Positions 5,628 to 63,080 are shown, counted from the first letter of the stretch. The stretch: DNA of 64,000 bases from a bacterium (GCA_021801565.1 JAJYXV010000015.1:23839-87838), one strand, 5' to 3'. Made by a program: numbers and translations. The notes: a model not told the origin generated them from the letters alone.

Positions 5628-7811
5628 ATGGAACTTATTACTGGCGCATACGAACCAAAAGAAGCGGAATCGAACATATACGAAAAATGGGAACAATCGG
5701 GATATTTTAATCCAGACAAACTTCCCGGCGAGCGGAATGAAAAATATATTGTCTATATGCCACTTCCCAACGTGACAGGAACACTCCATATGGGACACGC
5801 ACTTGATAATACGCTTCAGGATATTGTTATTCGCTATCATCGAATGAAAGGATATAAAACACTTTGGTTTCCTGGCACCGACCACGCGGGTATTGCAACG
5901 CAGTATGTTGTTGAAAAAGAATTAAAGAAAAGGGGAATAAACCGTTTTGAACTTGGGCGTGAAAAATTTATTGAGAAAATATGGGAGTGGAAAAACAAAT
6001 ACGGAAACACTATTATTGAGCAGTTAAAAAAACTTGGAGTGTCATGTGATTGGTCGCGCATCAGATTCACTATGGACGAGAAATATGCAAAAGATGTGCA
6101 AAATGCATTCGTGCATTACCACGAGAAAGGATTTCTCTATCGTGGAAAACGCGTTGTAAATTGGTGCCCACGCTGTGGTACAAGTCTTTCTGAACTTGAA
6201 CTCGAATATAAAGACGAGAAATCAAAATTGTGGTACATAAAATATAATTTCAAAGATCAAAATTCAAAGATCAAAAGTGTGACTGTTGCAACAACACGAC
6301 CTGAAACAATGTTGGGTGACACCGCGGTTGCGGTACATCCGAAAGATGATCGGTATAAAAATATGATTGGAAAAACTCTTATACTTCCGATTATGCATCG
6401 GGAAATTCCCATTGTTGCTGATGATGCAATAGACATGGAGTTTGGTACGGGTGCGGTCAAAGTTACCCCCGCACATGACATGGTTGATTTTGAAATGGGG
6501 GAGCGACACAAACTTGAAGTAATTCAAGTGATTGATGAACGCGGAAAAATGAATGAAAACGCAGGAATATACAATGAAATGAAAGCGGAAGAGGCACGGG
6601 AAAAGATTGTTGAAAGATTAAAAGGGGAAAAACTTCTTGAAAAAGAGGAGAGCTACGACCACCGGGTCGCGGTTTGCTACCGTTGCGGACACGTGATTGA
6701 GCCGGTTCCCTCACTTCAATGGTTTTTGAGAATGGAAGAACTCGCAAAAAATGCACTTGATGCCGTAAAATCCAAAAAAGTAAAAATCATCCCTAATAAT
6801 TTTGAAAAAAAATATTTCGATTGGCTTGAAAATATCCGCGACTGGACAATCTCGCGTCAGATTTGGTGGGGACACCAAATTCCAGTTTATTTTTGCAAAA
6901 ATAAACTGGAATCAATTTCCAATGAAAATAAAGAAGAGTATGTGGTCTCACTGGAAAGACCAGGAACATGCCCATTTTGTAAAAAATGTGAAATGGAACA
7001 ATCTCCTGATGTGCTCGACACGTGGTTTTCCTCGGCACTTTGGCCGTTTGCAGGACTTTCGGAATCAGATCTCAAAAATTATTATCCAGGAACAACACTT
7101 ATTACCGCGCGCGATATATTAAATCTTTGGGTGGCGCGTATGATTTATTCCGGCATTGAATTTAAAAAAGAACTTCCCTTTACTAACGTATTTATTCACG
7201 GAACGATACTCACCAAAGATGGGAAACGCATGTCGAAAAGTCTTGGCACCGGCATTGATCCGTTGAAATATATTGATCAGTATGGCGCCGACGCAACACG
7301 CTTTGGAATCGTCTGGCAGGCGAGCGGACAAGATATTCGATGGGATGAGACCGCAATTATTGCAGGAAAAAAATTTGCAAATAAATTATGGAACGCGAGT
7401 CGGTTTGTTCTCGCAAACGCTTCGCCAAATGGTATCAGTATAAATCAGCTCAATCCGCATATATCCGCGTCTACGGATGCAGATAAGAAAATTTTAAGGG
7501 CACTTGAGAAAACAAAAGAAAGTATTGAAAGGGATATAAAAAATTTTGAATTTTCGAGACCGCTTCACACCGCATACGATTTTTTCTGGCACGAATTTTG
7601 CGACATTTATCTTGAGATATCAAAGAAACAATTATCTGTCCCGAACGGAAAAGACGAAAACCTGTCGGAAAACACGAAAGCGATACTAATACATGTCCTC
7701 CTCTCTTCCCTTAAAATATTTCATCCCTTCATTCCCTTCATCACTGAAGAAATTTATTCACGTATTCCACTTGAAAACAAAAAAGAATGTCTCATGATTG
7801 AGGAATGGTAA
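5628..7811 (+). CDS. valS: valine--tRNA ligase (short form lacking C-terminal coiled-coil)
   Basis: PLPNVTGTLHMGHA (HIGH) and KMSKSLGTG (KMSKS) motifs, with the ValRS-type N-terminus YEPKEAESNIYEKWEQSGYF. The track start at 5547 is a TTG, so the ATG at 5628 is preferred. Confidence 0.9.
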   Translation: MELITGAYEPKEAESNIYEKWEQSGYFNPDKLPGERNEKYIVYMPLPNVTGTLHMGHALDNTLQDIVIRYHRMKGYKTLWFPGTDHAGIATQYVVEKELKKRGINRFELGREKFIEKIWEWKNKYGNTIIEQLKKLGVSCDWSRIRFTMDEKYAKDVQNAFVHYHEKGFLYRGKRVVNWCPRCGTSLSELELEYKDEKSKLWYIKYNFKDQNSKIKSVTVATTRPETMLGDTAVAVHPKDDRYKNMIGKTLILPIMHREIPIVADDAIDMEFGTGAVKVTPAHDMVDFEMGERHKLEVIQVIDERGKMNENAGIYNEMKAEEAREKIVERLKGEKLLEKEESYDHRVAVCYRCGHVIEPVPSLQWFLRMEELAKNALDAVKSKKVKIIPNNFEKKYFDWLENIRDWTISRQIWWGHQIPVYFCKNKLESISNENKEEYVVSLERPGTCPFCKKCEMEQSPDVLDTWFSSALWPFAGLSESDLKNYYPGTTLITARDILNLWVARMIYSGIEFKKELPFTNVFIHGTILTKDGKRMSKSLGTGIDPLKYIDQYGADATRFGIVWQASGQDIRWDETAIIAGKKFANKLWNASRFVLANASPNGISINQLNPHISASTDADKKILRALEKTKESIERDIKNFEFSRPLHTAYDFFWHEFCDIYLEISKKQLSVPNGKDENLSENTKAILIHVLLSSLKIFHPFIPFITEEIYSRIPLENKKECLMIEEW

Positions 7812-23405: not shown

Positions 23406-24245
23406 TTATCTTTCCTGCTTTTCGACTAAAATAAAAAAATTTTCAAAAAGTTTCGCCACAAGTATGGGACCCGTGCCACCGGGTGTTGGAGTGAAGTCAA
23501 TTTTCAATTCACAATTTTCAATTTTCAATTTTTCTGAATTAAAATCTCCAACCAATTGCCATTCGTCATTTGCCATTTGCTTTTTTCCATATCCAAAATC
23601 AATCACTAAAACCTTTTCTTTTAACATACCTTGAGAAACAAGATGTGGCTGACCGGTTCCAAGTATCACTATATCGGCATTTTTAATGAGTGAATAATCA
23701 CCTCCTTTATCCAAAAGATATAAATCTGAGACTTTTCCCTTGAGCCATGTCGCAATCGGTTTTCCAACAAGATTTCCAAGTCCCACAACGCCAACTTTTT
23801 TTTCGCTTAATATAAGATTTTGATTTTTTAATATTTCTTCAACCACACCAACTGCGGGAGGTAATATAAAATTTCTTCCGGCATAAAACGCACCGAGTGC
23901 GCGTTCACCCAACACATCAACATCTTTTTCCCGAGGAATCACGTTCATCACATATTGTGCGTTCACGTGAGAGGGGAGAGGAAGTTGTACAATCACACCG
24001 CCACATGTTTTGTGATTTGTAATTTTTAAAATTTCTTTTCGTAACCTATCCTGCGTTATATCCTCCTCAAGTTTGTATACTCTAAAGTCAATATTGAGCG
24101 CCTTCGCTATTTTTTCCTTCTGTTTCAAAAAACTTACTGACGCAGGATTCTCTCCAATTAAAAATGCCGCAAAAAACTTTTTTGTTTTTTTCTCTTTTAT
24201 TTTAGTTAAAATTCCCTCAGCGATTTTTTTTCCATCAATAACCAT
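23406..24245 (-). CDS. folD: bifunctional methylenetetrahydrofolate dehydrogenase/cyclohydrolase
   Basis: FolD family with a GxGxxVG NAD(P) motif. It carries an extra insert, NSEKLKIENCELKID, encoded by GAAAATT repeats. Confidence 0.8.
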   Translation of the reverse strand: MVIDGKKIAEGILTKIKEKKTKKFFAAFLIGENPASVSFLKQKEKIAKALNIDFRVYKLEEDITQDRLRKEILKITNHKTCGGVIVQLPLPSHVNAQYVMNVIPREKDVDVLGERALGAFYAGRNFILPPAVGVVEEILKNQNLILSEKKVGVVGLGNLVGKPIATWLKGKVSDLYLLDKGGDYSLIKNADIVILGTGQPHLVSQGMLKEKVLVIDFGYGKKQMANDEWQLVGDFNSEKLKIENCELKIDFTPTPGGTGPILVAKLFENFFILVEKQER

Positions 24246-24663: not shown

Positions 24664-25959
24664 TTAAGGCAAAATCGGAAACTTTTTACAAAGTTTTTTT
24701 ATATCCACTTGTATCGTCAATTTTTTTTGAGTTTGTAGCAACGAATCAGAAATAAGATGTGCGATTAATCTCATTTCTTTTTCTTTCATTCCGCGTGTCG
24801 TAAGTGCGGGGGTACCAACACGAATTCCTGATGGGTTGGTAGGTTTTTGTGTGTCGTAGGGAATTGTGTTTTTATTCACGATAATTCCAACACCTTCCAA
24901 CAAATCACTCGCTTCGCCTCCACTTATTCCTTTTTCCATTGTATTAACTAAAAACAAGTGCGAGTCAGTTCCTCCCGAAATAATTTTCCATCCAATTTTT
25001 TTAAGCTCCTCCGCAAGTGCCTTCGAATTTTTTACCACCTGTTTTGAATATATCCTAAATTGATTTGTGTCGGCCTCGCTTAATGCAACTCCGATTGCCG
25101 CGATTGTATTCATGTGTGGTCCACCCTGAATTCCTGGGAAAACAATTTTATTAATGGCCTCTGCAATTGATAGTTTCGAATTTTGAATTTTGAATTTTGA
25201 ATTTGTTTGAGATTTGAGATTTGAGATTTGAGATTTTCTTGCAAATATAAGTGCCGCTCGCGGACCGCGGAGTGTTTTGTGTGTGGTAGTGGTCACTACA
25301 TGCGCGTAGGTGAAGGGGGATGGATATGCGCCTCCTGCAACAAGTCCCGCAAAATGAGACATATCTACCATAAATATCGCTCCTACTGCATCTGCAATTT
25401 TTCTCATCTTCTTGAAATCAATAATTCGCGCGTATGCACTTCCTCCCGCAATAAGAAGTGTTGGTTTTTCTTTTTTTGCGATTTTCAAAACCTCATCATA
25501 GTTTATTTTTTCTGTTTTTTTATCCACTCCGTAGGGGACCTGTTTCCATAGTTTTCCTGTCACGCTTACACGATATCCGTGCGTAAGGTGACCCCCCATA
25601 TCGAGCGCCATTGCCATGATTTTTGAACCAACAGGAATAAGTGCATGATAGACTGCGAGATTTGCGGGAGATCCAGAATATGGCTGCACATTCACATCCC
25701 ACATTTTTCGATCCGCCGGCTGGCGGATAAATAACTTTAACGCACGTGATTGTACCAACTCTTCAAGTTCGTCCACGTGCTTATTGCCCGCATAATAACG
25801 CGCTCGCGTGTATCCTTCGGCGTATTTATTGGTAAATACACTTGCCAGTGCCTCGCGTACGCCTGGTGAAACATAATTTTCCGAAGCGATAAGATTCAGC
25901 GTCTCATTCTGCCGAATTTTCTCTTTTCTAACAAGTTGTCGCATCTCTCTATCTCTCAT
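24664..25959 (-). CDS. glyA: serine hydroxymethyltransferase
   Basis: SHMT family with the PLP-Lys region HVVTTTTHKTLRGPR. It contains a repeat-encoded insert, RKSQISNLKSQTNSKFKIQNSKLS. Confidence 0.9.
   Translation of the reverse strand: MRDREMRQLVRKEKIRQNETLNLIASENYVSPGVREALASVFTNKYAEGYTRARYYAGNKHVDELEELVQSRALKLFIRQPADRKMWDVNVQPYSGSPANLAVYHALIPVGSKIMAMALDMGGHLTHGYRVSVTGKLWKQVPYGVDKKTEKINYDEVLKIAKKEKPTLLIAGGSAYARIIDFKKMRKIADAVGAIFMVDMSHFAGLVAGGAYPSPFTYAHVVTTTTHKTLRGPRAALIFARKSQISNLKSQTNSKFKIQNSKLSIAEAINKIVFPGIQGGPHMNTIAAIGVALSEADTNQFRIYSKQVVKNSKALAEELKKIGWKIISGGTDSHLFLVNTMEKGISGGEASDLLEGVGIIVNKNTIPYDTQKPTNPSGIRVGTPALTTRGMKEKEMRLIAHLISDSLLQTQKKLTIQVDIKKLCKKFPILP
25177..25237. repeat. heptanucleotide tandem repeats (GAATTTT)x4 + (GAGATTT)x4 inside glyA coding sequence
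   Basis: cgaattttgaattttgaattttgaatttgtttgagatttgagatttgagatttgagatttt. Confidence 0.85.
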
Positions 25960-50725: not shown

Positions 50726-51568
50726 ATGGGACAAAAATTAGGACAACATTTTTTAAAGAATAAAAAAATACTTCAGATAATTGCCGGGGCAGCTGAATTG
50801 CGTGATGGTGAAACCGTGATTGAAGTCGGTCCAGGACACGGGGAGCTCACAGAGCACCTCAAATCTCAAACCTCAAATCTCAAAAATTGCAAAATAATTT
50901 TGATCGAGAAAGATAAGGCACTTGCTGAACAACTGGAGAAAAAATTTGAAAAAGATAAAAATATAAAAATTATTTATGGAGATGCTTTAAAAATACTTTC
51001 CAGGGTTGTCTCTTCTCTCTCACATAAATCTTCTTCTCTGGGCCCCAGTTATATACTTGTTGGAAATATTCCTTACTACATCACCGGATATTTGCTTCGA
51101 ACAATTCAAGAACTAAAAAATAGACCAACTCGTACAATCGTTATGATACAAAAAGAGGTCGCTGAGCGTATTGTAAAAAAACCACCGGAAATGAATTTAC
51201 TTGCCGCAAGCGTGGCATATTGGGCTGATGCCGCAATTATTATGAGCGTATCAAAAAAAGAATTTGTCCCACAACCAAAAATTGATTCTGCGGTAATCGC
51301 GCTTCATACAAAAAGAACACACTTAAAAAATAGTGGGGGAGAAGAAAAAAAATATTATAAAACACTTGGTATATTATTCAAACAACCAAGAAAAACAATA
51401 AAAAATAATATAACGTTATCGTATCGATCGGCTAGTAAATGTAACACCGGAGAAAAAGAGGAGATATTTAAGAGGTTAAAAAAAACAGGAATAGATATTG
51501 AGCAACGATCACAGAACTTAAGCGTAGAGGAAATAAGAAGGGTCGCAAATGTTATATGTACAAAATAA
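50726..51568 (+). CDS. rsmA: 16S rRNA (adenine1518/1519-N6)-dimethyltransferase
   Basis: MGQKLGQHFLKN...VIEVGPGHGELTE...VGNIPYYIT. It has an insert, LKSQTSNLKNCK, encoded by AAATCTC repeats. Confidence 0.9.
   Translation: MGQKLGQHFLKNKKILQIIAGAAELRDGETVIEVGPGHGELTEHLKSQTSNLKNCKIILIEKDKALAEQLEKKFEKDKNIKIIYGDALKILSRVVSSLSHKSSSLGPSYILVGNIPYYITGYLLRTIQELKNRPTRTIVMIQKEVAERIVKKPPEMNLLAASVAYWADAAIIMSVSKKEFVPQPKIDSAVIALHTKRTHLKNSGGEEKKYYKTLGILFKQPRKTIKNNITLSYRSASKCNTGEKEEIFKRLKKTGIDIEQRSQNLSVEEIRRVANVICTK
50857..50895. repeat. heptanucleotide repeat (CTCAAAT/CTCAAAC) inside rsmA
   Basis: cctcaaatctcaaacctcaaatctcaaaaattgcaaaat. Confidence 0.8.
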
Positions 51569-51615: not shown

Positions 51616-52233
51616 ATGAAAATAAAATATATGTTTTCTAAACAAATAAAAAAAGGGCGAAACATACCAAAAAGACGCATGTGCCGACACCGGCAGGCGG
51701 AAGCATATATATTCTCTACTATTAATGGGGGGAGAAAATATATTGCTATATTCGTTCTTTTCCTCGTTATGTTTGCCTCTTTGGGCGATAAAACGTTTGC
51801 CGCCATATCTCCAATAAGCCCGTTTGGAGGAAAGGTGATTTCGTGGCTTCCTTCGGCGCCAGGATGTCTTGCTTTTACCACAGCCGTATCTCTCGCAACA
51901 CTCGGTACAATCAATCCGAGTGTTGAAGAATTGGTGGTGGGACCTCCCAATGGCGGAACGTTCGGTATTCTTCGTGTTAATCTTATTCCTGTTCCTCCAA
52001 CAACGATTCATATATATCAACAATATCAACTCCCAGAAACGTACGTACTTGGCTCTTCGGTAAATATTTGTGATGCGTGTAAGGCCGTCGACAAACTTCC
52101 GTTTCTCAAAAATGTGTGCAACACGGGCATCTTAAAAGATATACTTGGAACAGTATGTAGTTTTATTGGCGGCGCATGTCCGATAACAAACCTTGTTTTG
52201 AAGATGGGAACAGCAATAAAACCATCACCGTAG
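51616..52233 (+). CDS. hypothetical secreted/membrane-anchored Cys-containing protein
   Basis: 205-aa ORF with a hydrophobic anchor and 8 Cys in its C-terminal half. It is the first gene of the T4SS-like block. Confidence 0.45.
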   Translation: MKIKYMFSKQIKKGRNIPKRRMCRHRQAEAYIFSTINGGRKYIAIFVLFLVMFASLGDKTFAAISPISPFGGKVISWLPSAPGCLAFTTAVSLATLGTINPSVEELVVGPPNGGTFGILRVNLIPVPPTTIHIYQQYQLPETYVLGSSVNICDACKAVDKLPFLKNVCNTGILKDILGTVCSFIGGACPITNLVLKMGTAIKPSP

Positions 52234-52290
52234 TCTTCTTGTTTTGTCTCACAAGACTTGGAAAAGCTGATATAATAATAATGAAACAAT

Positions 52291-53043
52291 ATGTCCTTTA
52301 TTAGAAAACATAAAAAAATCTTCTCTCTCCTTATTGTGGTGTGTGCGATAATTACATCGTTCTTTATTGTGCGCGGAGGACAAGAAAAAAAACCAGATTA
52401 TCTTTTCCAAGTAGTAAAAAATACAGCTGAAACGCCATCAACACATATTAAGAATCCGCTTCCTAATCTCACCACCGAATTTACCACTGAATCTCTCAAA
52501 ACACTTATGTCTGAAAAAAATAATGTTGCCGCACAGGAGAAAAACGATGCATCGCAAGCGAAAACACTTCCCGACAAGAACGCCGTGGAAAAAATCGTTG
52601 GTGATATTATCGACAAAGAACTTGAATCGGAAACCATTGATCCAAAAACAATCAGTGTGGCAAAAGACGATTCAAAACAAATGCAAGTGGTATATCTCTT
52701 AGTAATACAAGAAATTATAAAAAATGTATCTGAAAAAAATAGCACGGAAGATGTAACAAAGATGCCTATTGCCGCATATTTTGGAAATATTGGAAATAAT
52801 TTTAAAAACACTGTTGATATTTTAAAAATAATGAACGTTCCACCGTCGTGGGTCGATATACATGCAAGTCTCCTTGGGTTTTTTACTTCACAAAAAAATG
52901 TGTATCTTTCGCTTTCACAAGCCGACCAAGATCCGCTCCGATTTATGATCGCGATTCAGCGCATCGCCGATGAAAGTGAGAAAAAATTTGATGATATTCG
53001 AATAAAAATAGACAAGCGGGTAAAAGAACAAAAAATTATCTAA
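52291..53043 (+). CDS. hypothetical N-terminally anchored protein
   Basis: 250-aa ORF with one TM helix and a charged extracytoplasmic domain. Confidence 0.5.
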   Translation: MSFIRKHKKIFSLLIVVCAIITSFFIVRGGQEKKPDYLFQVVKNTAETPSTHIKNPLPNLTTEFTTESLKTLMSEKNNVAAQEKNDASQAKTLPDKNAVEKIVGDIIDKELESETIDPKTISVAKDDSKQMQVVYLLVIQEIIKNVSEKNSTEDVTKMPIAAYFGNIGNNFKNTVDILKIMNVPPSWVDIHASLLGFFTSQKNVYLSLSQADQDPLRFMIAIQRIADESEKKFDDIRIKIDKRVKEQKII

Positions 53044-53052
53044 TTTATAGCT

Positions 53053-54546
53053 ATGGTGCATTATATAAAAAATATTGTTGTCCTCTTCTTTATTGTGGTG
53101 TTTTTATATGCTCCATTTTCTGCGTACGGGCAATCTACTTCAACAACCGCCACTTCAACACAAACACTTTCAAGTAAGGGAGAGGTGCAAGGAATGGAAA
53201 TGTGTATCAAGGCGGCGCGTCTTTCTGCAAAATATGGTGGATTTACGGCGCTTGATCGTGTACAAACAAATATCACAAACAGCGTGAAAAATTATCTAAG
53301 TATGCAATTTAATAGCGCAACGGGTCTTAATATTGATTTTTCGAATCTCGGATCAAGCATTATTAATCAAGGGCTAGGGATGTTAAATGACGTATTTGGA
53401 AACGTCCTGAAAGATGAAGTAGGAAAACAAGTGGATACACTAAAGAAAAAAGCACAAGATGAATTGGAAAGAATAGCAAAAGAAGCGCTTGGAAACGTAG
53501 TCAAAGATGCGACAAACGCGTTAAATCCGCTTTCTCCAGTACCCACCGCAGAACAAGGGGACTTGCTTGATGAAGCAAGAAAACAAAACGAAAAAACAAA
53601 TCAAATGATCGCCGAACAGAAACGCGCTCAACTTATTGCGGATACGCGGGATAAATGCCAAGAACTTTTAAAAACCACCACAGAGACAATAAAGCGATCT
53701 CTTTTGTATCAACTCTCAAACCAAATTACACAATGGATTGTAAACGATGAAAAACCGCAATTTGTAAAAGACCCCGGGCAATTTTTAGCGGATACTGCGC
53801 AACTTGCAGTTGATCGAACGATCTCCAGAATTGCTCCTCGCCTTTGCACTCCATTCCAGCTTTCCATCACTGCACAAATTCCAACCGCAAACCGACAGGC
53901 AAATCCGTTCTACGAAGAGCTAACCTGCACGCTCGACCAAGTAACAGGAAATATTGAGGCGTTCTATAACGACTTCAGAAACGGCGGGTGGATCGCATAT
54001 CAAGAAATGTGGAAACCGCAAAATAATTATTATGGCGCATCAATGATGGTTCAAGAAGAACTTGCACAACAACAAGCGGCTGCCACACAACTCGCGCAAG
54101 AAGACTTACAAAGAGGAAGTGGTTTTCCCAGTCAAACACAATGTGTTGAGTGGCAACTTTATGTACCAACGGATTGTAATTTAAACGATTTGCAAAAACG
54201 GATGTCTGATGTTCTTCAAGTTGGGGGGCAATGTTTTGTTGCGGTGGATGGAGAAATACACGGACCCACGGATGACGGGAAAGAGCCACCACTTAGCACC
54301 GCAACCACACAGGCACCCGAAGGATCATATTGGCAGTGTCAGAGAAGTGAAATCACGAATCCAGGAACCATCACCGCACGTCTGGGAGAAAAAGCACAAC
54401 AAATGGAAGTAAATCAACTTGAAACAACAGGCGATATAGAAAATTTCCTTGATACGATTGGCGATGCAATTGTAAACAAACTCGTAAAGTCTGGTATTGG
54501 GGGCCTCCGCGGATTATTACAGGGGCTTCCTCCGCTAAATCCCTAA
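53053..54546 (+). CDS. hypothetical secreted protein (Gln-rich)
   Basis: 497-aa ORF with a signal peptide and a coiled-coil/Q-rich sequence. Confidence 0.5.
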   Translation: MVHYIKNIVVLFFIVVFLYAPFSAYGQSTSTTATSTQTLSSKGEVQGMEMCIKAARLSAKYGGFTALDRVQTNITNSVKNYLSMQFNSATGLNIDFSNLGSSIINQGLGMLNDVFGNVLKDEVGKQVDTLKKKAQDELERIAKEALGNVVKDATNALNPLSPVPTAEQGDLLDEARKQNEKTNQMIAEQKRAQLIADTRDKCQELLKTTTETIKRSLLYQLSNQITQWIVNDEKPQFVKDPGQFLADTAQLAVDRTISRIAPRLCTPFQLSITAQIPTANRQANPFYEELTCTLDQVTGNIEAFYNDFRNGGWIAYQEMWKPQNNYYGASMMVQEELAQQQAAATQLAQEDLQRGSGFPSQTQCVEWQLYVPTDCNLNDLQKRMSDVLQVGGQCFVAVDGEIHGPTDDGKEPPLSTATTQAPEGSYWQCQRSEITNPGTITARLGEKAQQMEVNQLETTGDIENFLDTIGDAIVNKLVKSGIGGLRGLLQGLPPLNP

Positions 54547-54549
54547 TCA

Positions 54550-56931
54550 ATGTTTAAAAAATATAAAAAAATACTTATTTTTGTGTTGTTGTTTATAACC
54601 ATTTTTATTTCTGGATCTGTTTTTCTTACACAAAAAGCAAATGCAATAGCAGGATATCCAGATTTTATGATGAACCCCTATAATCCAGTTACACAAAAAA
54701 TAGGAGAGGTGGCAACAGATATAATAACATGGCCACTAAGAGAGGCGTTTAAGGGACTTATGTATGTTTTAGCACTTATTGCGGGGCTTTTATTTTGGAT
54801 AGGGGCGCAGCTCATTGGATTTTTTATGTCGCTCAATATGGCAATTTTCGACATGCCTCTCGTTGAGGTGGGGTGGAAAATTGTCCGCGATGTTGCAAAC
54901 TTGGGATTTGTTCTTGCAATTATCATTATTGCAGTTGCTACCATTGTGCGATACGAAGAGTATGGAACAAAAAAACTTCTCCCAAAGCTTATCGCGGCCG
55001 CAATTTTAGTAAATTTCAGTTTAACCATTGGCGCTGTGTTTATTGATTTTTCAAACACACTTACAAATTTCTTTATCTCTAAGTCTTCAAAAAATGGTGA
55101 TGTTATTGGTATGACCACAGAACTTGCGAGAGGTTTTGATACACAGCAATTTTTAAGAACACACACAAGCGGCAACCAATTTATACAAGGGGGGGCAGCA
55201 CCAATATATGAAACATTTGCATCAATTTTAAGTTTATCTATGGCCGCATTATTTACATTTATTTCCGCGGTGAGTTTGTTGGGAATCGCAATTATGCTTC
55301 TCGTGCGTTTTATGTATCTCTCCGTGCTTCTTCTTGTTTCTCCGATTATTTATCTCTTTTGGGTCATACCCGATACAGCATCGGTGTGGAAAAGTTGGTG
55401 GAGAAAGTTTTTGGAATGGGTATTTAATGCTCCAATTCTTACTTCGTTTCTTTATCTTACCGTCATATCAACTACCGCGCTTGGAAAATTTGCTGATAAA
55501 TATGCGGTCAGTGCTGGTTCAAAAATTAATGACAGTTTATCGCTCACCCCTCAAATTCTTATTGTTATAGGAAACTCACTTATTATGACTGGGCTTCTCG
55601 TTGGAGCGCTTTTGGTGGCAAACAGTTTGGGTATTACCGGCGCAACCACCGCATATAGTCTCGCGTCAAAAGCCGGAAAAACAACAAAGAAGTGGGCACT
55701 TGATAAGAGCAAGGGCGCGGCGAAAAAGGCTGGGAGAAGCGCGCTCACGGCAGGAACAAAGACAGATGATCAAGGAAACACAACGACCGCGCTCGAACGA
55801 TTTGGCGGAAAGTATGGAAAGATTCCTCTTATCGGCAGGGCAATTACGGGGATTTCTGGTGCCTCATCCTCTGCAAGGGCAACAAGTGGCAAGGGAGTAG
55901 AGGAAAGAATGAAGGGACTTGAAAACAGGACGGGCGACGACTTGGTGGCGCTCGCGAGCAGAAAGGGTCTTTCATCGGAGGAGCTTGCAGCCACTGGTAT
56001 TGCCGCCGCGAAGAAAGGAAAATGGAATGATCTAAGTGAAGAAACACGAAAGAGCGTGGTGGATGCGGCACGAAAAACAAAGACGGGAGATAAACTTGCT
56101 GAACAAGCCCCGTGGCTCGCAAAAGAACTGGGAGAAGACGAAGTAAAGATAGCCGCAAAAATGAACGAAGTTCCAAAGAGTGCAATTTATGAAAAGAAAG
56201 ATGGTGATGGAAACGTCATTAAAGACGCAAGCGGCAAACCAATAAAGGAGGTGAATCCAAATTACGAGAAGTTTGTACAGGATAACGCAATGAATTTCCC
56301 GGCTCAATTTAAAGAAGAAATTGGAAAACTTCCAAAGGACACCGGAGAGGCGGTGCGCGAGGCATTTACAGCTGGTCTTAAAGATAAGGTGAGAGAAAAA
56401 ATAGAGGTTGAGGTTTATAATGCGGCGACAAAAACATTCGAAAAAGAAAAAGGATATGAAGCGGTTGAAAAGGCAAATAAGATTATAGACGACACAAAGG
56501 GTCCGTTGAAAATAATAGAAACGGCTATAGAAGATTTGAGAGATAAGGTTGATAAACCACAACTTGTTGCACTCCAAAAACAAAAAACAAAACTTGGTGA
56601 CGAGGAAACAAAACTTAATAACGAGTTGAATGGTCTACGAAGCGATCCATTACTAAACGCTGGTAAGATCAAGGAAACAGAGAAAAAAATAGCAACAATC
56701 AAGAAAGAAATTGTGTCTGTCGAAAAAGAGTTTACAAATCTTAATGATATACAGACAGAATTTGATAACAAAAAGGCCGAGCGAAAAGCAATAATTGATG
56801 TGGTATCTACTCAAGAAGAGAAATTAAAAAAGATGAAAGATAGTATTGGAAGGGAAAACGCTCGTATAGTGAGCAAACTTGACGATATTACAAAAGATGT
56901 TTCGTTCAAAAAAAACCAAAAAACACCCTAA
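54550..56931 (+). CDS. VirB6/TrbL-like polytopic membrane protein with long C-terminal coiled-coil/charged extension
   Basis: About 7 TM helices in the first ~380 aa, then a Lys/Glu-rich coiled coil. Its position lies upstream of the VirB3/VirB4 homologues. Confidence 0.5.
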   Translation: MFKKYKKILIFVLLFITIFISGSVFLTQKANAIAGYPDFMMNPYNPVTQKIGEVATDIITWPLREAFKGLMYVLALIAGLLFWIGAQLIGFFMSLNMAIFDMPLVEVGWKIVRDVANLGFVLAIIIIAVATIVRYEEYGTKKLLPKLIAAAILVNFSLTIGAVFIDFSNTLTNFFISKSSKNGDVIGMTTELARGFDTQQFLRTHTSGNQFIQGGAAPIYETFASILSLSMAALFTFISAVSLLGIAIMLLVRFMYLSVLLLVSPIIYLFWVIPDTASVWKSWWRKFLEWVFNAPILTSFLYLTVISTTALGKFADKYAVSAGSKINDSLSLTPQILIVIGNSLIMTGLLVGALLVANSLGITGATTAYSLASKAGKTTKKWALDKSKGAAKKAGRSALTAGTKTDDQGNTTTALERFGGKYGKIPLIGRAITGISGASSSARATSGKGVEERMKGLENRTGDDLVALASRKGLSSEELAATGIAAAKKGKWNDLSEETRKSVVDAARKTKTGDKLAEQAPWLAKELGEDEVKIAAKMNEVPKSAIYEKKDGDGNVIKDASGKPIKEVNPNYEKFVQDNAMNFPAQFKEEIGKLPKDTGEAVREAFTAGLKDKVREKIEVEVYNAATKTFEKEKGYEAVEKANKIIDDTKGPLKIIETAIEDLRDKVDKPQLVALQKQKTKLGDEETKLNNELNGLRSDPLLNAGKIKETEKKIATIKKEIVSVEKEFTNLNDIQTEFDNKKAERKAIIDVVSTQEEKLKKMKDSIGRENARIVSKLDDITKDVSFKKNQKTP

Positions 56932-56934
56932 CAC

Positions 56935-58200
56935 ATGGAAGAGATGAATGACATTCCACAAACCATACGTGATCAAATAGGATCAGGAAAAATTATCGCA
57001 ACCATTGATTCAATCAATGAGCGTGCCGACATTGCGCGTCTTGATATTATTCCACAACTTGTATATGACGTGCTTTCAAGGGGTGTTCCCGCAAAAGATT
57101 TTATTTCACACTGTTCGGGTGTTTTAAACTTCAATCAAAAAAAGTTGAAAGCGGTGGTGCGAGAAATAAAAGAAAAAATATTGAAACAATTTGATTATGC
57201 GCTTTTGAACTATGGGGTAGATATAAAAGAGATAGATGTGTCAGATGCGATGACGCTTGATGAATACACAAAACAACATAATGAGATGCTTGCTTCTGTT
57301 GGTATTGAGGTTGAAAAACCAGTTTCTACAATTTCTCTCGAAAATTTCTCGGACACCGAACCAGAAAATCTTGGTCCGGTGAAAATAAGCGTAAGCGGAC
57401 CCACTGACGAAACCACAAAAAAAATTGAAGTAACCGAAGAACCCGCACCACTTGTAATACATAGAGAAAAACCACAAACGGCCGCACAAGAGAATCTACC
57501 AACTAAGGGATACTCACAACAAACAAGGGGGTTTTCCCTCCCATTTGGGTTTTTTAAACAAAAAATTGTGCAAACACAAGCGCCATCAACACCAGTGAAA
57601 GCAACGATTGAATTTTGGAAGAAAGATGAACCAAAAAAACGCGCTGTTGATTATAGTGAGTTGAGAACACCACTTACGCCTTTTGCCGGACTAACCAACA
57701 ACAAGCAACCAACAACCGACAACACTAAAATAACTGACATCGGGATAAAAGAAACTGACCGCGCTCAAACACAGCCAATAACTCAGAAAATAAATCCACT
57801 TATGATGTTTGGAAACAAACAAACGACAAACAACCCTCAACCAACAACACAAAAAGAGGGGGGTGGCATCCTTGATATTAGGACGGGGGAGAGAAACGAC
57901 AAACAACCGAAAATCGAAAACTTAAGAGAAAATACAAAAACATCCGCCCAAGGCGGACCGGCCTCGGGTCGGCAGACCGCTCCAGTAATAAATACCGTTC
58001 CAAAACAAAACACACCCACCGAGCAAAAACCAACTCCAAACCCACAACAGCAAAAAACCGAAGGTCAAAAAGGAAAGGGGTTTGTCTGGTTTAAAAAACC
58101 AACGCAGAAAAGTACAACGATAACTAACAACAACACAGACAAAGATCCGAGAATCGAAGGAAACACGGTTGATCTACGATCAACAAACAATGAAAAATAA
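56935..58200 (+). CDS. hypothetical protein with Thr/Gln/Pro-rich C-terminal region
   Basis: 421-aa ORF that abuts the preceding gene with a 3-nt gap. Confidence 0.5.
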   Translation: MEEMNDIPQTIRDQIGSGKIIATIDSINERADIARLDIIPQLVYDVLSRGVPAKDFISHCSGVLNFNQKKLKAVVREIKEKILKQFDYALLNYGVDIKEIDVSDAMTLDEYTKQHNEMLASVGIEVEKPVSTISLENFSDTEPENLGPVKISVSGPTDETTKKIEVTEEPAPLVIHREKPQTAAQENLPTKGYSQQTRGFSLPFGFFKQKIVQTQAPSTPVKATIEFWKKDEPKKRAVDYSELRTPLTPFAGLTNNKQPTTDNTKITDIGIKETDRAQTQPITQKINPLMMFGNKQTTNNPQPTTQKEGGGILDIRTGERNDKQPKIENLRENTKTSAQGGPASGRQTAPVINTVPKQNTPTEQKPTPNPQQQKTEGQKGKGFVWFKKPTQKSTTITNNNTDKDPRIEGNTVDLRSTNNEK

Positions 58201-58202
58201 CA

Positions 58203-58577
58203 ATGACAGGGGATAAAAACCACGGATTTCGTTTCAAAGAATGGGACATTTATAAAGACTCGCGGAAACTAAGAACACAAATAAACGCTCTATTGAAAAC
58301 ATATCCCAAAGAAGAAAAGTTCGCGCTTGTTGACCAAACAAAAAGGGCATTAAATTCAATAGTGCTAAATATAGCCGAGGGGTCAAATAGAAGCACAGAT
58401 AAAGATTCAAAACTTTTTATAAATCGCGCACACGCGTCTCTTGATGAGGTTGTTGCATGCATTGATTGTGCGCTTGATGATAATTATATAGACAAAGAGG
58501 TGCACGAAAACATCATGATTAAATCTGAAAACTTAGCAAAACAATTAAGGGGATTTTATAAATATCTTTCCAAGTGA
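58203..58577 (+). CDS. four-helix-bundle protein (23S rRNA intervening-sequence protein family)
   Basis: WDIYKDSRKLRTQINALLKTYPKEEKFALVDQTKRALNSIVLNIAEGSNR. Confidence 0.65.
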   Translation: MTGDKNHGFRFKEWDIYKDSRKLRTQINALLKTYPKEEKFALVDQTKRALNSIVLNIAEGSNRSTDKDSKLFINRAHASLDEVVACIDCALDDNYIDKEVHENIMIKSENLAKQLRGFYKYLSK

Positions 58578-58622
58578 TTTTTTGTAATTGTTATCGGTTA
58601 TAGTTATAGTTAATGTATACTC

Positions 58623-59111
58623 ATGGCTACTTTTCAGGTTCCGCAATTTATTGATCAAAAACCAAAAATAGTAGGGCCGCTCACGCTCACACAGTTTTTT
58701 TATATTGCAATTGCGGCGGGTATTGTATTCGCTTCTTTTTATATATTTAATCTTTTTGTTTGGATACTTGTAAGTATTGTTTTTGTTACAATCGGTGTTG
58801 GGCTCGCATTCATAAAAATAAATGGACGGGAGATGCCAAAAGTAATACGCGACGGGCTTTATTTCTTTTTAAAACCGCGAATTTATACGTGGCAAAGGAT
58901 TACAGAAGAACCGCTTTACGAAGAGGAGAAAATAGAAAATACAAGAAAAACAATGGGTGCGAGAGAAAAATTAAATTCAATCGTACTAAACGTCACCACA
59001 GGAAAATTGTTTTCACCAAAACAAATGAGAAGCGAACAAAAAAAAGAAGAGTATCAAGTGGCCACATTCGAGACCGGAGAAAGAAGAAAAATAAAAAGAG
59101 TGGACTATTAA
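58623..59111 (+). CDS. PrgI/VirB3-like T4SS membrane protein
   Basis: MATFQVPQFIDQKPKIVGPLTLTQFFYIA followed by 2 TM helices, as in the PrgI family. Confidence 0.55.
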   Translation: MATFQVPQFIDQKPKIVGPLTLTQFFYIAIAAGIVFASFYIFNLFVWILVSIVFVTIGVGLAFIKINGREMPKVIRDGLYFFLKPRIYTWQRITEEPLYEEEKIENTRKTMGAREKLNSIVLNVTTGKLFSPKQMRSEQKKEEYQVATFETGERRKIKRVDY

Positions 59112-59198
59112 CAATACTAAAACTCTAATTTCCAATATCAAACGAAGACAAAAAATCAAAATGACAAACGAGGACATAAATTAACCGCCGATAAAATC

Positions 59199-59310
59199 TC
59201 AAATTACCAATGTCGAATAAATAACAAAATCAAAACACTAAATTTTTAAGTTTTAATCATTTGAATTTTGTTGGAAATTAAGATTTTGAAACTTGGATTT
59301 TAAATACAAG
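59199..59310 (+). repeat. ~110-bp direct repeat copy 1 (upstream of VirB4 N-domain gene)
   Basis: caaattaccaatgtcgaataaataacaaaat...tgttggaaattaagattttgaaacttggatttt is about 85% identical to 59981-60088. Confidence 0.75.
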
Positions 59311-59329
59311 ATAGTAGATAATAAAAAGT

Positions 59330-59980
59330 ATGTCGAACACACCAAAAAACACAACCGCACCATCCCAACAATTTGTTGAAATTACAAAGGTAGAAGATGG
59401 AGTAGTATATCTTAAAAAAGGAGGGATTCGCAAGATAATCATTGTGAGCGGAATTAATTTTGATTTAAAATCAGAAACCGAACAGAATCTTATATTAAGC
59501 AGCTTTCAAGACTTTTTAAATACGGTTGATTTTTCGGTACAATTTTTTGTTCATTCAAGGAAGGTAAATATTGATACTTACATGGAGCGAATGCGAGCGC
59601 GTCGCGAAGAAGAATCAAATGAACTTTTAAAAATACAAATAGATGAGTATATAAATTTTATAAAAACATTTATCGAACAGAATAAAATAATTTCAAAAAC
59701 ATTTTTTGTCATTGTTCCCTATGAAGCGGGGGATGCTATTGAACAAGCAAAGAAGGGGTTTCTGAGTTTTTTTGGAAAAAAACAATCACAAACCGAAGAT
59801 GTTCCAAATGCACAGGCGGCAATTGAACAGCTAAATCATCGTGTTGACCAGGTAATTTCTGGTCTTCAACAAATTGGACTTCGAGCGGTTCCTCTTGAAG
59901 ATGAAGAGCTCACCGAGCTTTTTTATAATCTCTATAATCCGCAACTTGTCGAGAAAAAAGGAATAGAGGTGCAGAAATGA
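59330..59980 (+). CDS. VirB4/TrbE N-terminal domain protein (separate ORF)
   Basis: VVYLKKGGIRKIIIVSGINFDLKSETEQNLILSSFQDFLNTVDFSVQFFVHSRK fits the VirB4 N-terminal pattern. Confidence 0.5.
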   Translation: MSNTPKNTTAPSQQFVEITKVEDGVVYLKKGGIRKIIIVSGINFDLKSETEQNLILSSFQDFLNTVDFSVQFFVHSRKVNIDTYMERMRARREEESNELLKIQIDEYINFIKTFIEQNKIISKTFFVIVPYEAGDAIEQAKKGFLSFFGKKQSQTEDVPNAQAAIEQLNHRVDQVISGLQQIGLRAVPLEDEELTELFYNLYNPQLVEKKGIEVQK

Positions 59981-60088
59981 CAAATTACTAATTTTCAATG
60001 TCGAACAAATAACAAAATTAAAAAATCAAATTTAAGATCTTTGTCATTTAGATTCTGTTGGAAATTAAGATTTTGAAATTTGGATTTA
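59981..60088 (+). repeat. ~110-bp direct repeat copy 2 (between VirB4 halves)
   Basis: caaattactaattttcaatgtcgaacaaataacaaaat...tgttggaaattaagattttgaaatttggattt. Confidence 0.75.
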
Positions 60089-60095
60089 ACAACAT

Positions 60096-61844
60096 ATGCC
60101 TCAAACAAACGAAAAATCAAACGCGCAGGATAATCTTTCAAACATCATTGCTCCCGCAGGCGTTGAAACGGGTTCAAATTATTTGAAAATAGGTGACTAC
60201 TATGCAAAAACATTTTTTGTATTCAATTATCCGCGTTTTATTTCGAGTGGATGGTTTTCTCCAATTATCAATTTGTCAGAGATGATGGATATTTCAATAT
60301 TTGCCCACCCAATGGATACCGGGCTGGCACTCAGGAATCTGAGAAAAAAAGTTGCACAGGTCGAGGCAGAAATAAATGAAAAACAAGACAAGGGAATTGT
60401 ACGCGATCCAATGCTCGAAACAGCATATGAAGACATTGAAAATTTGAGAGACTCGCTTCAACAAGCGAGAGAAAAACTTTTTCAGGTCGCGATCTACATT
60501 ACGATTTACGGAGAGGATTTAAAAAATCTTTCGAGGCTTGAAAATACACTCGAATCGCTTTTAGACAGTAAGTTGGTATATATAAAACCGGCGCTTTTCA
60601 GACAAATTGAAGGATTTAATTCCGTGCTTCCGATTGGAAAAGATGAACTCGCAGTAAATACCCCCCTTAACTCAGGTCCTTCATCCTCGCTTTTTCCATT
60701 TGTCTCTCCGGATCTTACTTCAGACAAAGGAATTCTCTTTGGGCTCAATATGCACAACAATGGTCTCATTATTTTCGACCGCTTTTCGCTTGAAAACGCA
60801 AATACGGTGGTGTTTGCAAAATCAGGATCAGGAAAGTCTTATGCATCAAAACTCGAAATACTCCGCTCTCTCATGGTGGGAACAAATGTAATTGTCATTG
60901 ATCCAGAAAACGAATACCAAAATCTCGCAAATTCAATTGGAGGAAGTTATTTTAAAATTTCACTCACCTCACAAAATCACGTAAACCCGTTTGATATTCC
61001 CGTAATTCCCGAGGGCGAGGAACCGGCCGACGTATTTAAATCTCATGTATTAAATCTGAGTGGACTCTTAAAATTGATGTTAAAAGAAATAAGCGCGGAA
61101 GAAGATGCAATTCTTGATCGCGTGATTATTGAAACGTACGCATCACGCGACATTACTGCTGAAAATTTTGGAACGATAAAAGAATTGAACCCGCCGCTTT
61201 TGGAAGATCTTCAAACTGTTTTAGAAAATACTGAGGGAGGACAAAATATGGCAAAACGACTGGAGAAATTCACTCGCGGATCATATGCCGGATTTACTAA
61301 TGCGCCGACGAATGTCGATATTAAAAATCGTCTTATTGTATTCTCTATCCGCGATCTTGAAGAAGAACTCCGTCCAATCGCAATGTATATTGTTCTAAAT
61401 TTTGTATGGAATCTTGTCCGATCTGAATTAAAACGCAGACTTCTTGTTGTTGATGAAGCGTGGTGGATGATGAAGTATAAAGACAGCGCATCGTTTTTAT
61501 TCGGTCTCGTAAAGCGTGCAAGAAAATATTACCTGGGAGTTACCACCATCACGCAAGACGTCGAAGATTTTTTGAAATCGGAATATGGAAAGCCAATTGT
61601 CACTAACTCATCAATACAATTACTCTTAAAACAGTCGCCGTCGAGTATTGGGGTGGTAACACAAGCATTTGATTTAACCGGCGGCGAACAATCATTGCTT
61701 CTTGAGGCGGGCGTGGGAGAGGGACTTTTCTTCGCTGGGCTAAAACACGTGGCGATAAAAATAATTGCCTCCTATACCGAAGATCAGATCATCACCACAA
61801 ATCCAGAACAAGTACTCCAGACCAAAGGGTTGTCATCCTTATAA
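60096..61844 (+). CDS. virB4: VirB4/TrbE/CagE-family T4SS ATPase (CagE_TrbE_VirB domain + ATPase)
   Basis: FFVFNYPRFISSGWFSPIINLSEMMDISIF, Walker A FAKSGSGKSYASK and Walker B LLVVDEAWWMM. Confidence 0.85.
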   Translation: MPQTNEKSNAQDNLSNIIAPAGVETGSNYLKIGDYYAKTFFVFNYPRFISSGWFSPIINLSEMMDISIFAHPMDTGLALRNLRKKVAQVEAEINEKQDKGIVRDPMLETAYEDIENLRDSLQQAREKLFQVAIYITIYGEDLKNLSRLENTLESLLDSKLVYIKPALFRQIEGFNSVLPIGKDELAVNTPLNSGPSSSLFPFVSPDLTSDKGILFGLNMHNNGLIIFDRFSLENANTVVFAKSGSGKSYASKLEILRSLMVGTNVIVIDPENEYQNLANSIGGSYFKISLTSQNHVNPFDIPVIPEGEEPADVFKSHVLNLSGLLKLMLKEISAEEDAILDRVIIETYASRDITAENFGTIKELNPPLLEDLQTVLENTEGGQNMAKRLEKFTRGSYAGFTNAPTNVDIKNRLIVFSIRDLEEELRPIAMYIVLNFVWNLVRSELKRRLLVVDEAWWMMKYKDSASFLFGLVKRARKYYLGVTTITQDVEDFLKSEYGKPIVTNSSIQLLLKQSPSSIGVVTQAFDLTGGEQSLLLEAGVGEGLFFAGLKHVAIKIIASYTEDQIITTNPEQVLQTKGLSSL

Positions 61845-61950
61845 TATATGCCCAGTGGTGATCCGCCAATTAGCGGACTACTAATCAGATCAGAAGATTC
61901 TTAGATAAAACAATGCCTTTTCAAATGTGTCTGCAATAGCATAAATATAT

Positions 61951-62382
61951 ATGGCCGAAGAAACAAAAAAAACTGGAGGGGAAAAAATAAAAACAGACGG
62001 AACAGAGCATAAAAAAAGATTTGGGACCGGAGAATTTATATTAGTTACCCTTATTTTGTTCTTTGCCGAGTTATTTGACTTTCTCATGAATATAGCATTT
62101 CCGATTCCTGTCGTGGGTCAAGTACTCTCAATTTTTGGAAGTTTATTTAGTTTTGTTGTTGGAGCATTTTTCCAGTTATATTTATTTTTAAAAGGGGCCC
62201 GCGGGATAGCTACGTGGTCAACAAGTATCGCCGGGTGGGTGGCAAATAGTATTCCGCTTCTTCAGATTTTTCCACTTCAAATTCTCGCATGGTTCGTAGT
62301 TGTAATAATTGAAAACAACCCAAAAGCACAAAAAATTGCTTCTGTCGCGAGTGGAAAGGCTGGTTCCGCAATAAAGAAATAG
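61951..62382 (+). CDS. hypothetical polytopic membrane protein
   Basis: 143-aa ORF with 3-4 TM helices. Confidence 0.45.
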   Translation: MAEETKKTGGEKIKTDGTEHKKRFGTGEFILVTLILFFAELFDFLMNIAFPIPVVGQVLSIFGSLFSFVVGAFFQLYLFLKGARGIATWSTSIAGWVANSIPLLQIFPLQILAWFVVVIIENNPKAQKIASVASGKAGSAIKK

Positions 62383-62405
62383 TTTTTATTGTATAATTAG
62401 AGAAT

Positions 62406-63077
62406 ATGAAAGTGAGGTTTATATTTCTTCTGTTTTTCTTTTGTCTTCTTGTTTTTTCTTTTGTCTCGGCACAAACCGGAGGTAATCTCATCATTACATG
62501 GCATGCCAACAATTATGTCCCCGAAGATTTTCAAGAAAAAGCATTTCCGACAAACGGAAACACCGTTCAAGTTTCTGTGGAATTTTTATTAGGCCAAAAA
62601 ATACAGAACATCTCACAAGTAGATATATCATGGTTTGTTGATGGGGTATTTTTTACCAAGGGCACCGGATTGAAAGAGATGTCATTTCCCATCACAAAAG
62701 TTGGGAGAAGCTCACATTCTGTGCGGGTTGTTATCCAAACAAAAACCGATAAATATGAGGGAATTATTTCCATTCCTGTGTTTAATCCGATAATAACGAT
62801 TGAAAACAAATACCCGCGCGGACTTGTTCGTTCTGGCGAACAAGTAAGCTTCTTTGTCATTCCATATTTTTTCAACATTTCATCACCATCTGAAATCACT
62901 TCTTTATGGACAATAAATGGCAACGCACAGGAGGGAACTCGCGATACGCTTCTTACATTAAATATTGGCGCTCCAAAAACTTCAGAACAAAAAAACATGA
63001 CAATTGAATCGTTCGTACAAAATATAAAAAACGGGCTTGAGTTTGCAAAAGAAAAAATAAACCTTTATATACAATAA
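62406..63077 (+). CDS. hypothetical secreted protein
   Basis: 223-aa ORF with a signal peptide (MKVRFIFLLFFFCLLVFSFVSAQ) and a beta-rich sequence. Confidence 0.5.
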   Translation: MKVRFIFLLFFFCLLVFSFVSAQTGGNLIITWHANNYVPEDFQEKAFPTNGNTVQVSVEFLLGQKIQNISQVDISWFVDGVFFTKGTGLKEMSFPITKVGRSSHSVRVVIQTKTDKYEGIISIPVFNPIITIENKYPRGLVRSGEQVSFFVIPYFFNISSPSEITSLWTINGNAQEGTRDTLLTLNIGAPKTSEQKNMTIESFVQNIKNGLEFAKEKINLYIQ

Positions 63078-63080
63078 TTT

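Follow-up and report, generated by a model that had tools for sequence, protein, structure and literature searches.

We investigated a short tandem repeat within rsmA (ksgA), the gene for the 16S rRNA A1518/A1519 dimethyltransferase, in a 64,000-nt stretch of bacterial DNA (GCA_021801565.1 JAJYXV010000015.1:23839-87838), referred to here as the window. The host is an ultra-small-celled member of the Patescibacteria, or candidate phyla radiation (CPR), represented by a metagenome-assembled genome (GCA_027423585.1 / GCA_027349045.1). The rsmA segment is probably a fixed, in-frame heptanucleotide microsatellite, in which about four copies of CTCAAAT have turned into ordinary protein structure. 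A second segment, in the serine hydroxymethyltransferase gene glyA of the same window, is accounted for by the same explanation as a separate pair of arrays of the same kind, built on a unit that is likely favoured in general and not transposed. For a heptamer simple sequence repeat (SSR) its behaviour is unusual: it lies within essential enzymes, does not vary in length, is conserved in the protein, is homogenised in its units, and is exchanged by recombination.

The rsmA open reading frame (ORF) matched the Pfam family RrnaAD (PF00398; E=1.2e-44, 152.8 bits) over residues 4-276 and contained both signature motifs, the S-adenosylmethionine (SAM) motif I (GPGHGELT) and the NIPY motif in the form GNIPYY. 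KsgA of Bacillus subtilis (PDB 6IFS) aligned with the window RsmA at E=7e-32, and the AlphaFold model of the latter had a mean predicted local distance difference test score (pLDDT) of 88.7. The plus strand at 50857-50895 reads cctcaaatctcaaacctcaaatctcaaaaattgcaaaat and is translated as HLKSQTSNLKNCKI, exactly as a first-pass annotation of this DNA had given it. Within this segment (50858-50884), Tandem Repeats Finder (TRF) reported a period of 7 with 3.9 copies of the unit CTCAAAT and 90% matches; the array corresponds to codons L45-K53 and the peptide LKSQTSNLK. Its proposed position between SAM motif I and strand beta-2 was borne out by both the 6IFS alignment and the model, where L45-K53 forms the C-terminal half of helix alpha-A (40-49) and the loop 50-55 preceding beta-2. 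With a helix at 40-49, a strand at 56-61, and a local pLDDT of about 91-92, the array-coded segment is modelled as regular structure and not as a disordered appendage. A TGCAAAA unit trailing the array aligns with AAATTCAAAAT of the glyA insert and is also found in a shorter allele of relatives (CGCAAAA TGCAAAA; loci L009 and L014).

The age of the array was assessed in the DNA of RsmA orthologues with 57-73% identity. A long loop allele was present in four lineages (the window, L007, L012, and L013), encoding LKSQ(I/T)SNLKNCKI from (CTCAAAT)3 CTCAAAA AT TGCAAAA; L012 had three perfect CTCAAAT units followed by CTCAAAA. Differences among long alleles comprised seven synonymous codons (AAG twice, CTA, AAC, TGT, CAG, and ATT, with CAG and ATT coming from L010) versus two non-synonymous changes, I49T in the window and L45F in L010. 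Given this mainly synonymous decay, down to 57% identity, the array is old and no recent insertion, and purifying selection acts on the encoded peptide. The array is conserved within this family, and on that ground the original reading of it as an insertion fails. A short allele (L009 and L014) encoded LK(T/A)Q(N/S)AKCKI, 3 aa (9 nt) below the long allele. It opened with the same CTCAAR seed and was 7-periodic itself, as CTCAAGA CACAAAA CGCAAAA TGCAAAA in L009 (p7 = 0.73) and CTCAAAG CGCAAAG TGCAAAA TGCAAAA in L014 (p7 = 0.77). The canonical RsmA loop of other bacteria had 9 aa (e.g., QELAKKVKK) and no 7-nt periodicity, and RsmA DNA retrieved from metagenomes came mostly from distant orthologues with such 9-aa loops, which served as a negative control, and included few Patescibacteria loops. 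Orthologues had been expected to carry a loop about 9 aa shorter; the actual difference was 3 aa for the alternative allele and 5 aa for B. subtilis KsgA. Thirteen contigs of varied sample origin carried an identical RsmA, and no array length variation was seen on these same-species contigs or within 90% clusters. Likewise, GlyA variants of 96-98% identity had an identical insert with no change in length.

Comparison of closely related genomes indicated how the two rsmA alleles are distributed. A genome tree based on PNPase and ComM (1197 columns) placed L007 with L009 (97% amino acid identity) and L012 with L014 (96%), each pair with 100% bootstrap, and both sister pairs were discordant at rsmA, with one genome carrying the long allele and the other the short one. 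Between L007 and L009, 360 nt upstream were 100% identical and the adjacent gene parts on both sides were mostly 92-100% identical, while a tract of some 115 nt with the rsmA loop at its centre was 62-72% identical. Synonymous codons in the flanks were allele-specific (GAA CTC ACT GAG CAT in L007 vs. GAA TTA ACC GAA AAA in L009), and the flank states of the L009 short allele were also present in the L014 short allele. Discordant alleles, a divergent tract, and shared flank states together point to short-tract homologous recombination importing a divergent allele; the loop allele would thus be exchanged with its homologous flanks and would involve no free element. By parsimony, with L010 as the outgroup, L009 is the recipient. 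Identity between L007 and L009 also dropped sharply toward the 3' end of rsmA and in the downstream gene, and the whole region is mosaic, highly so downstream of rsmA. Discordant loop alleles in near-identical genomes serve as a clean marker of short-tract recombination in uncultivated ultra-small bacteria. A diversity-generating retroelement, considered on account of a nearby bAvd-like gene, was set aside because the allele differences were not confined to adenines; no search for a reverse transcriptase was made.

The glyA product reads ...ARKSQISNLKSQTNSKFKIQNSKLSIAEA..., coded by two abutting 7-nt arrays. TRF identified 4.4 perfect copies of TTTGAGA (the reverse complement of CTCAAAT) at 25206-25236 and the unit TTTTGAA (sense-strand TTCAAAA) at 25174-25204. 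On the sense strand, the insert consists of (AATCTCA)x4, AACAAAT, (TCAAAAT)x3, and TCGAAAC. Local alignment of the rsmA segment with the glyA insert on the sense strand gave 38/40 identities and a score of 57, compared to a shuffle maximum of 26. The pairwise DNA comparison and TRF thus upheld the claim that the two genes contain the same repeat unit and heptad peptide in sense orientation. The likeness was limited to the repeat units and the adjoining AAATT(G)CAAAAT (11 nt).

The frame, orientation, and peptide common to both genes had also been taken to mean that one DNA element was inserted in each. Because 7 and 3 share no factor, the reading frame of a 7-nt array shifts from unit to unit and returns to its start after 21 nt; read in its three frames, (CTCAAAT)n gives LKSQISN, SNLKSQI, and QISNLKS, which are one cyclic heptad. 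The complement (ATTTGAG)n contains TGA, so that the A-rich orientation alone can be coding. Consequently, the common frame, orientation, and peptide are forced by the genetic code and are no evidence of a common insertion. With the frame forced, the rsmA array old, and the flanks unshared, membership in the same repeat family stood, and we found no evidence for a shared inserted element. A lesson for annotation is that identical heptads in unrelated genes need not point to mobile DNA or to a functional motif in common.

The glyA insert was also traced in homologues. The window GlyA loop was exactly 21 aa longer than in its nearest backbone relatives (P0124-P0131, a set that takes in the genomes of L007, L009, and L010). 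The 63-nt architecture was shared with L015, L016, and L017, from distant Patescibacteria including Jorgensenbacteria, on a common plan of GCAAGRA, (unit 1)x4, AACAAAT, (unit 2)x4, and TATCAAT. Units 1 and 2 were AATCTCA and TCAAAAT in the window, AATCCGA and TCGAAAT in L016, an AATTTCA type and TCAAAAT / TAAAAAT in L017, and mixed at both places in L015. A single substitution repeated in every unit alters several residues together (SQISNLK to SEIRNPK), which reflects concerted evolution at the DNA level and not peptide selection. Across Patescibacteria the insert is homologous, its units being homogenised in each lineage. Identity between the window and L016/L017 was 78-80% over the insert and about 52-79%, lower on average, over the remaining gene. 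In a GlyA tree built with the loop masked, long-loop proteins were scattered and the window clade was nested among short-loop sequences, whose loop SKKEFSSQ is the canonical serine hydroxymethyltransferase sequence. Given this canonical short loop and nested position, the long loop was most likely imported into the window clade together with its own flanks (ARK...KLSIAEA). A split Falkowbacteria glyA (cluster 7) was considered as a case of array frameshift and rejected; the break lies elsewhere, with an N-terminal fragment of 145 aa and the loop in the other fragment.

Period-7 arrays in the window were more numerous than expected. The 13-mer CTCAAATCTCAAA, allowing at most one mismatch, occurred 7 times against 0.49 expected, and 6 arrays of period 7 were detected against 0.23 expected from order-3 Markov simulations, with none at periods 8-15. 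Proteins were also scored for heptamer-encodability, i.e., the best match of a 10-aa window to a peptide that DNA of perfect period 7 could encode, which in shuffled proteins never exceeded 7/10. Scores of at least 8/10 in the window were confined to glyA, rsmA, and one other ORF, and 50 kb of E. coli DNA gave one chance match. With just three such ORFs, a description of the arrays as pervasive in this genome was toned down; they are real but sparse per genome. Among 240 RsmA and GlyA homologues from Patescibacteria, 312 windows scored 8, 109 scored 9, and 29 scored 10, and encodable windows clustered in four variable RsmA loops and one GlyA loop (35/120 proteins per family). The peptides at RsmA loop 1 varied by lineage (NLKSQISNLK, IKNQKSKIK, IKYQISNIK, ELRIKNYELR, and NFQFSISNFQ). 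The DNA of this loop was (AAGAATT)4.5 in L141 (p7 = 0.88), and in L311 it was a perfect (AATCTCA)4.3 in an RsmA with 49% identity. AAATCTC was the commonest inferred heptamer unit in the RsmA and GlyA loops of Patescibacteria. Arrays that mark these five loops would offer a DNA-level explanation for some lineage-specific insertions in Patescibacteria.

Several further features of the RsmA and GlyA loops were observed. The L311 gene (L311:7427-8263; protein P0043) had three arrays with three units in three loops, namely (AATCTCA)4.3, a CTAAAAG type, and about nine AGNGACA, the last of which encodes DKGQETRGKRQGTSGKR. At L010:10130-10195, a GC-rich 21-nt insertion, CCACCTACGGAACGGGCGGGT, lies within the rsmA array and splits the peptide as SQISN-PPTERAG-LK. 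Other GC-rich secondary inserts coding for Pro, Gly, and Arg were seen in A-rich arrays, in proteins P0002 and P0048 (RsmA) and P0143 (GlyA), with SQI-RPSGDLPKAKT-NLK and SQIPD-PPALGTPRARPG-KSKTN as examples. The GC-rich inserts are odd at a genome GC content of about 38%, which suggests that the arrays are insertion hotspots. A second variable RsmA loop at 51006-51050 (residues about 94-108), VVSSLSHKSSSLGPS, showed a 7-aa SSL...SSL periodicity and is a hotspot of long insertions in relatives P0002, P0007, and P0008; L014 has a CCCTATA/CCCTATG heptamer array there.

When 185,579 species genomes were scanned for (CTCAAAT)3, at least 120 loci matched. The matches listed (L018-L137) were mostly from Cyanobacteria (Microcoleus), Planctomycetota, Verrucomicrobiota, Bacteroidota, Acidobacteriota, and Chloroflexota, and an array specific to Patescibacteria was therefore rejected. 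Array length in these matches (n=115) had its mode at 30-35 nt and its median at 32 nt (about 4.5 units); the search minimum for (AATCTCA)n arrays was 21 nt, below the observed mode. About one third of the arrays listed lay in open frames of at least 250 aa, and the others included arrays in non-coding DNA. In-frame arrays with Pfam support were found in the LeuRS editing domain, an M16 peptidase, YggS, LysA, YegS, MtnA, UvrA, and a MurD-like ligase, and N-terminally in a 3-hydroxyacyl-CoA dehydrogenase (isolate Halpernia humi DSM 21580) and an epimerase. Viral contigs gave 39 matches for the CTCAAAT unit vs. 6-19 for four composition-matched, stop-free control heptamers; CTCAAAT as a unique unit was consequently also rejected, being favoured about 3-fold over controls. 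Whatever their unit, heptamer arrays greatly exceed chance expectation. The Microcoleus arrays (e.g., L042, L071, L082, L089, L092, and L111) are followed by a conserved GAYTGRCYG flank and seem to be part of a bigger dispersed repeat. The preference for about four units echoes G-rich heptamers, in which it has been ascribed to G-quadruplexes; these cannot form in an AATCTCA sequence.

In most prokaryotic genomes, heptamers are described as outnumbering the other SSR classes with units of 5-11 nt, an abundance attributed to polymerase slippage (Mrazek 2007, as cited in PMC4679880 and PMC4692102). The published families TAACTGA, GGGAATC, and the cyanobacterial short tandemly repeated repetitive (STRR) sequences lie mostly between genes, tend to have about four units, and enter ORFs solely in the stop-free orientation (PMC4679880, PMC4692102). 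The arrays described here resemble them in their head-to-tail 7-nt units, in at least three copies beyond chance, in the excess of heptamers over other unit lengths, in their preference for about four units, in their stop-free orientation inside ORFs, and in their sporadic occurrence across phyla. The units of one array also evolve in concert, as in glyA, and units of rsmA loop 1 differ by lineage. The published families are under-represented within genes and differ in length from strain to strain, whereas the rsmA array lies in the catalytic fold of an essential enzyme, is constant in length, and is conserved across a family-level clade. A literature search for the peptide and repeat strings found no mention of them.

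The microsatellite explanation would proceed as follows. Bacterial replication produces arrays of 7-nt units far more often than of other 5-11-nt units, as established in the literature and seen in the counts above, and the seed at the rsmA site would have been the local Leu-Lys codons CTC-AAA. Arrays in genes survive only where the strand is stop-free in three frames and the net length change is divisible by three, a filter that leads, given the code, to the A-rich sense orientation and the cyclic heptad LKSQISN. After fixation, purifying selection acted on the peptide while the DNA repeat decays slowly at synonymous sites, as the rsmA alleles show. Related Patescibacteria swap the loop allele together with flanks of about 50 nt by short-tract homologous recombination, as shown for L007 and L009, and units are homogenised lineage by lineage, as shown for glyA, perhaps by slippage or gene conversion. 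Such a history would mean that non-triplet microsatellites can become permanent protein, that a 7-nt unit is "frame-proof" with selection filtering only strand and total length, and that an essential enzyme can take such arrays into its core fold, where they are afterwards conserved.

Several observations weigh against this explanation. Growth by a single unit in an essential gene is a frameshift, so that rare +/-3-unit or compensated events are needed, and no such expansion events were observed. The 9-nt difference between the long and short rsmA alleles is no multiple of 7, and simple slippage does not predict so strong a preference for about 4-4.5 units (median 32 nt). In the window lineage, the long glyA loop and its flanks are placed among short-loop relatives, which reflects import and not local expansion. 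In addition, the recombination tract was clear in just one sister pair, none being resolved for L012/L014, and the window-wide enrichment consists of few arrays, with 10/10 encodability in glyA alone.

Insertion of a small mobile or selfish element in frame in both rsmA and glyA, in the manner of Rickettsia palindromic elements, is very improbable. Those elements are selfish DNA resembling miniature inverted-repeat transposable elements, which sit in frame in housekeeping genes, are palindromic and about 100-150 bp long, and have a family consensus with many copies per genome (PMC10969869). The rsmA and glyA segments are like them in providing a DNA-derived extra peptide that the fold of conserved enzymes accommodates at the surface and that is patchy in distribution, and the glyA long loop in particular is nested among short-loop relatives. 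Unit, orientation, and peptide common to two unrelated genes, a 38/40-nt likeness extending past the array into AAATT(G)CAAAAT, and arrays in many unrelated genes and phyla would also fit a mobile element. However, the segments are 27-63 nt, purely tandem, and non-palindromic; terminal inverted repeats, hairpins, and target duplications are all lacking, no inverted repeat brackets either segment, and the arrays were unpaired in predicted folds (z = +0.61 for the glyA insert). There is no non-repeat core, as the rsmA-glyA likeness comprises the units and 11 nt, and frame and strand follow from the code. The rsmA array is ancient, the local CTCAAA seed on which it is built occurs in the short allele as well, transfer between genomes carries homologous flanks, the empty-site alleles of both genes differ in their flanks and not in the array alone, and control heptamers were rarer by a factor of only about three. 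Convergence at the protein level, in which an amphipathic heptad (L/I spaced 4 and 3) would be selected in these loops and the DNA periodicity would merely follow from the codon bias of an AT-rich genome, is quite improbable. It would explain why the peptide is kept despite synonymous DNA changes and why LKSQISN, with 3-4 hydrophobic spacing, falls in a confidently modelled helix-loop. It does not account for a 7-nt periodicity that is perfect over 28-31 nt, third codon positions included (L012, L311, and glyA), for real loops reaching 10/10 encodability when shuffled proteins stay at or below 7/10, for one substitution spread through all units of an array, or for arrays in non-coding DNA of other phyla.

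Two further possibilities concern what the array might do or how it might arise. The neuO poly-psi repeat of the E. coli K1 prophage CUS-3 is an (AAGACTC)n array translated as RLKTQDS heptads; it follows the start codon in 2-93 copies, changes by single units, acts as an on/off and graded switch, and encodes a disordered peptide (PMC3046976). The rsmA array is formally of the same construction, with a coding 7-nt unit of which three make one heptad and all frames are read (AAATCTC vs. AAGACTC, differing at 2/7; KSQISNL vs. KTQDSRL). That rsmA is a contingency locus, turned on and off or graded in activity by slippage of 7-nt units, is nonetheless extremely improbable. Its array has about four units interrupted by a mismatch, lies inside the Rossmann fold (codons 45-53) and not at the 5' end, is modelled as helix and loop, and is stable, with no copy-number variation on the 13 contigs or within clusters; rsmA and glyA are both housekeeping genes, and we saw no evidence of switching. 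An active process, templated or polymerase-driven, that writes heptamer arrays of ~30 nt, with the loop cassettes then shuffled by recombination, is unlikely. The length mode of 30-35 nt, several arrays with different units in one gene (L311), homogenisation of units without change in length, and the swapping of alleles between genomes would agree with it. No candidate enzyme or template was found, however, and the heptamer excess is general in bacteria, for which slippage is the simpler explanation (PMC4679880). The wider proposal that Patescibacteria, and perhaps bacteria generally, write or regenerate such arrays at particular sites, loops of essential enzymes among them, as evolvable loop cassettes is rather unlikely. 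If it were true, cassettes would be homogenised in place at constant length, would take up secondary GC-rich inserts, and would pass between species by short-tract recombination, and the in-frame AAATCTC/LKSQISN arrays in LeuRS, UvrA, LysA, MtnA, GlyA, and RsmA across phyla would reflect a specific mechanism instead of slippage and selection.

Table 1. Heptamer arrays and host genes in the window, with loci of exact arrays in other genomes.
Feature	Location	Strand	Basis and remarks
rsmA/ksgA (16S rRNA A1518/A1519 dimethyltransferase), array host	50726..51568	+	ORF 280 aa
Heptanucleotide array CTCAAAT/CTCAAAC/CTCAAAT/CTCAAA(A) in rsmA	50858..50884	+	TRF and codon view
Trailing TGCAAAA unit, codons C55-K56	50888..50894	+	2 nt out of register with rsmA array
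glyA (serine hydroxymethyltransferase)	24664..25959	-	ORF 431 aa; Pfam SHMT E=1.9e-157
glyA loop insert, 63 nt = 21 codons = 9 heptamers	25171..25233	-	Encodes SQISNLKSQTNSKFKIQNSK(L)
folD, two weaker 7-nt arrays	23497..23580	-	+ strand units TCAATTT, CCATTTG (TRF); Pfam THF_DHG_CYH
tsaD, three degenerate 7-nt arrays	2352-2384, 2584-2620, 3076-3105	+	TRF; Pfam TsaD E=2e-71
Class I aminoacyl-tRNA synthetase gene, (TTCAAAG ATCAAAA)x2	6249..6276	+	TRF period 7 and 14
Two A/C-rich 7-nt arrays, ORF in region resembling a type IV secretion system	57693-57723, 57813-57849	+	TRF; encodability 8/10
Exact (AATCTCA)n, n at least 3, in LeuRS	L077:414-3233	-	
Same, in UvrA	L117:2-3241	+	
Same, in LysA	L124:1523-2731	-	
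Same, in MtnA	L018:2082-3260	+	
Same, in YggS	L112:3916-4707	-	
Same, in dehydrogenase	L034:1929-3203	-	

The remaining arrays of the window lie in other genes, among them the housekeeping genes tsaD and folD and that of a class I aminoacyl-tRNA synthetase (Table 1). Those in folD encode ...KKQMANDEWQ...NSEKLKIENCELKI..., and that in the aminoacyl-tRNA synthetase gene (Pfam tRNA-synt_1, E=4e-129) encodes NFKDQNSKIKS. The ORF with the two A/C-rich arrays matched no Pfam family. Immediately downstream of rsmA, positions 51616-64000 (= L001:10891-20843) contain a cluster resembling a type IV secretion system (T4SS) or conjugation apparatus, with TrbL_3, PrgI, TraC-like, and VirB4/DUF87-TraG ATPase genes, several ORFs without a Pfam match, and a gene for a bAvd/23S_rRNA_IVP four-helix bundle. 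T4SS pilin genes and a tyrosine recombinase were found upstream in L001 and its relatives.

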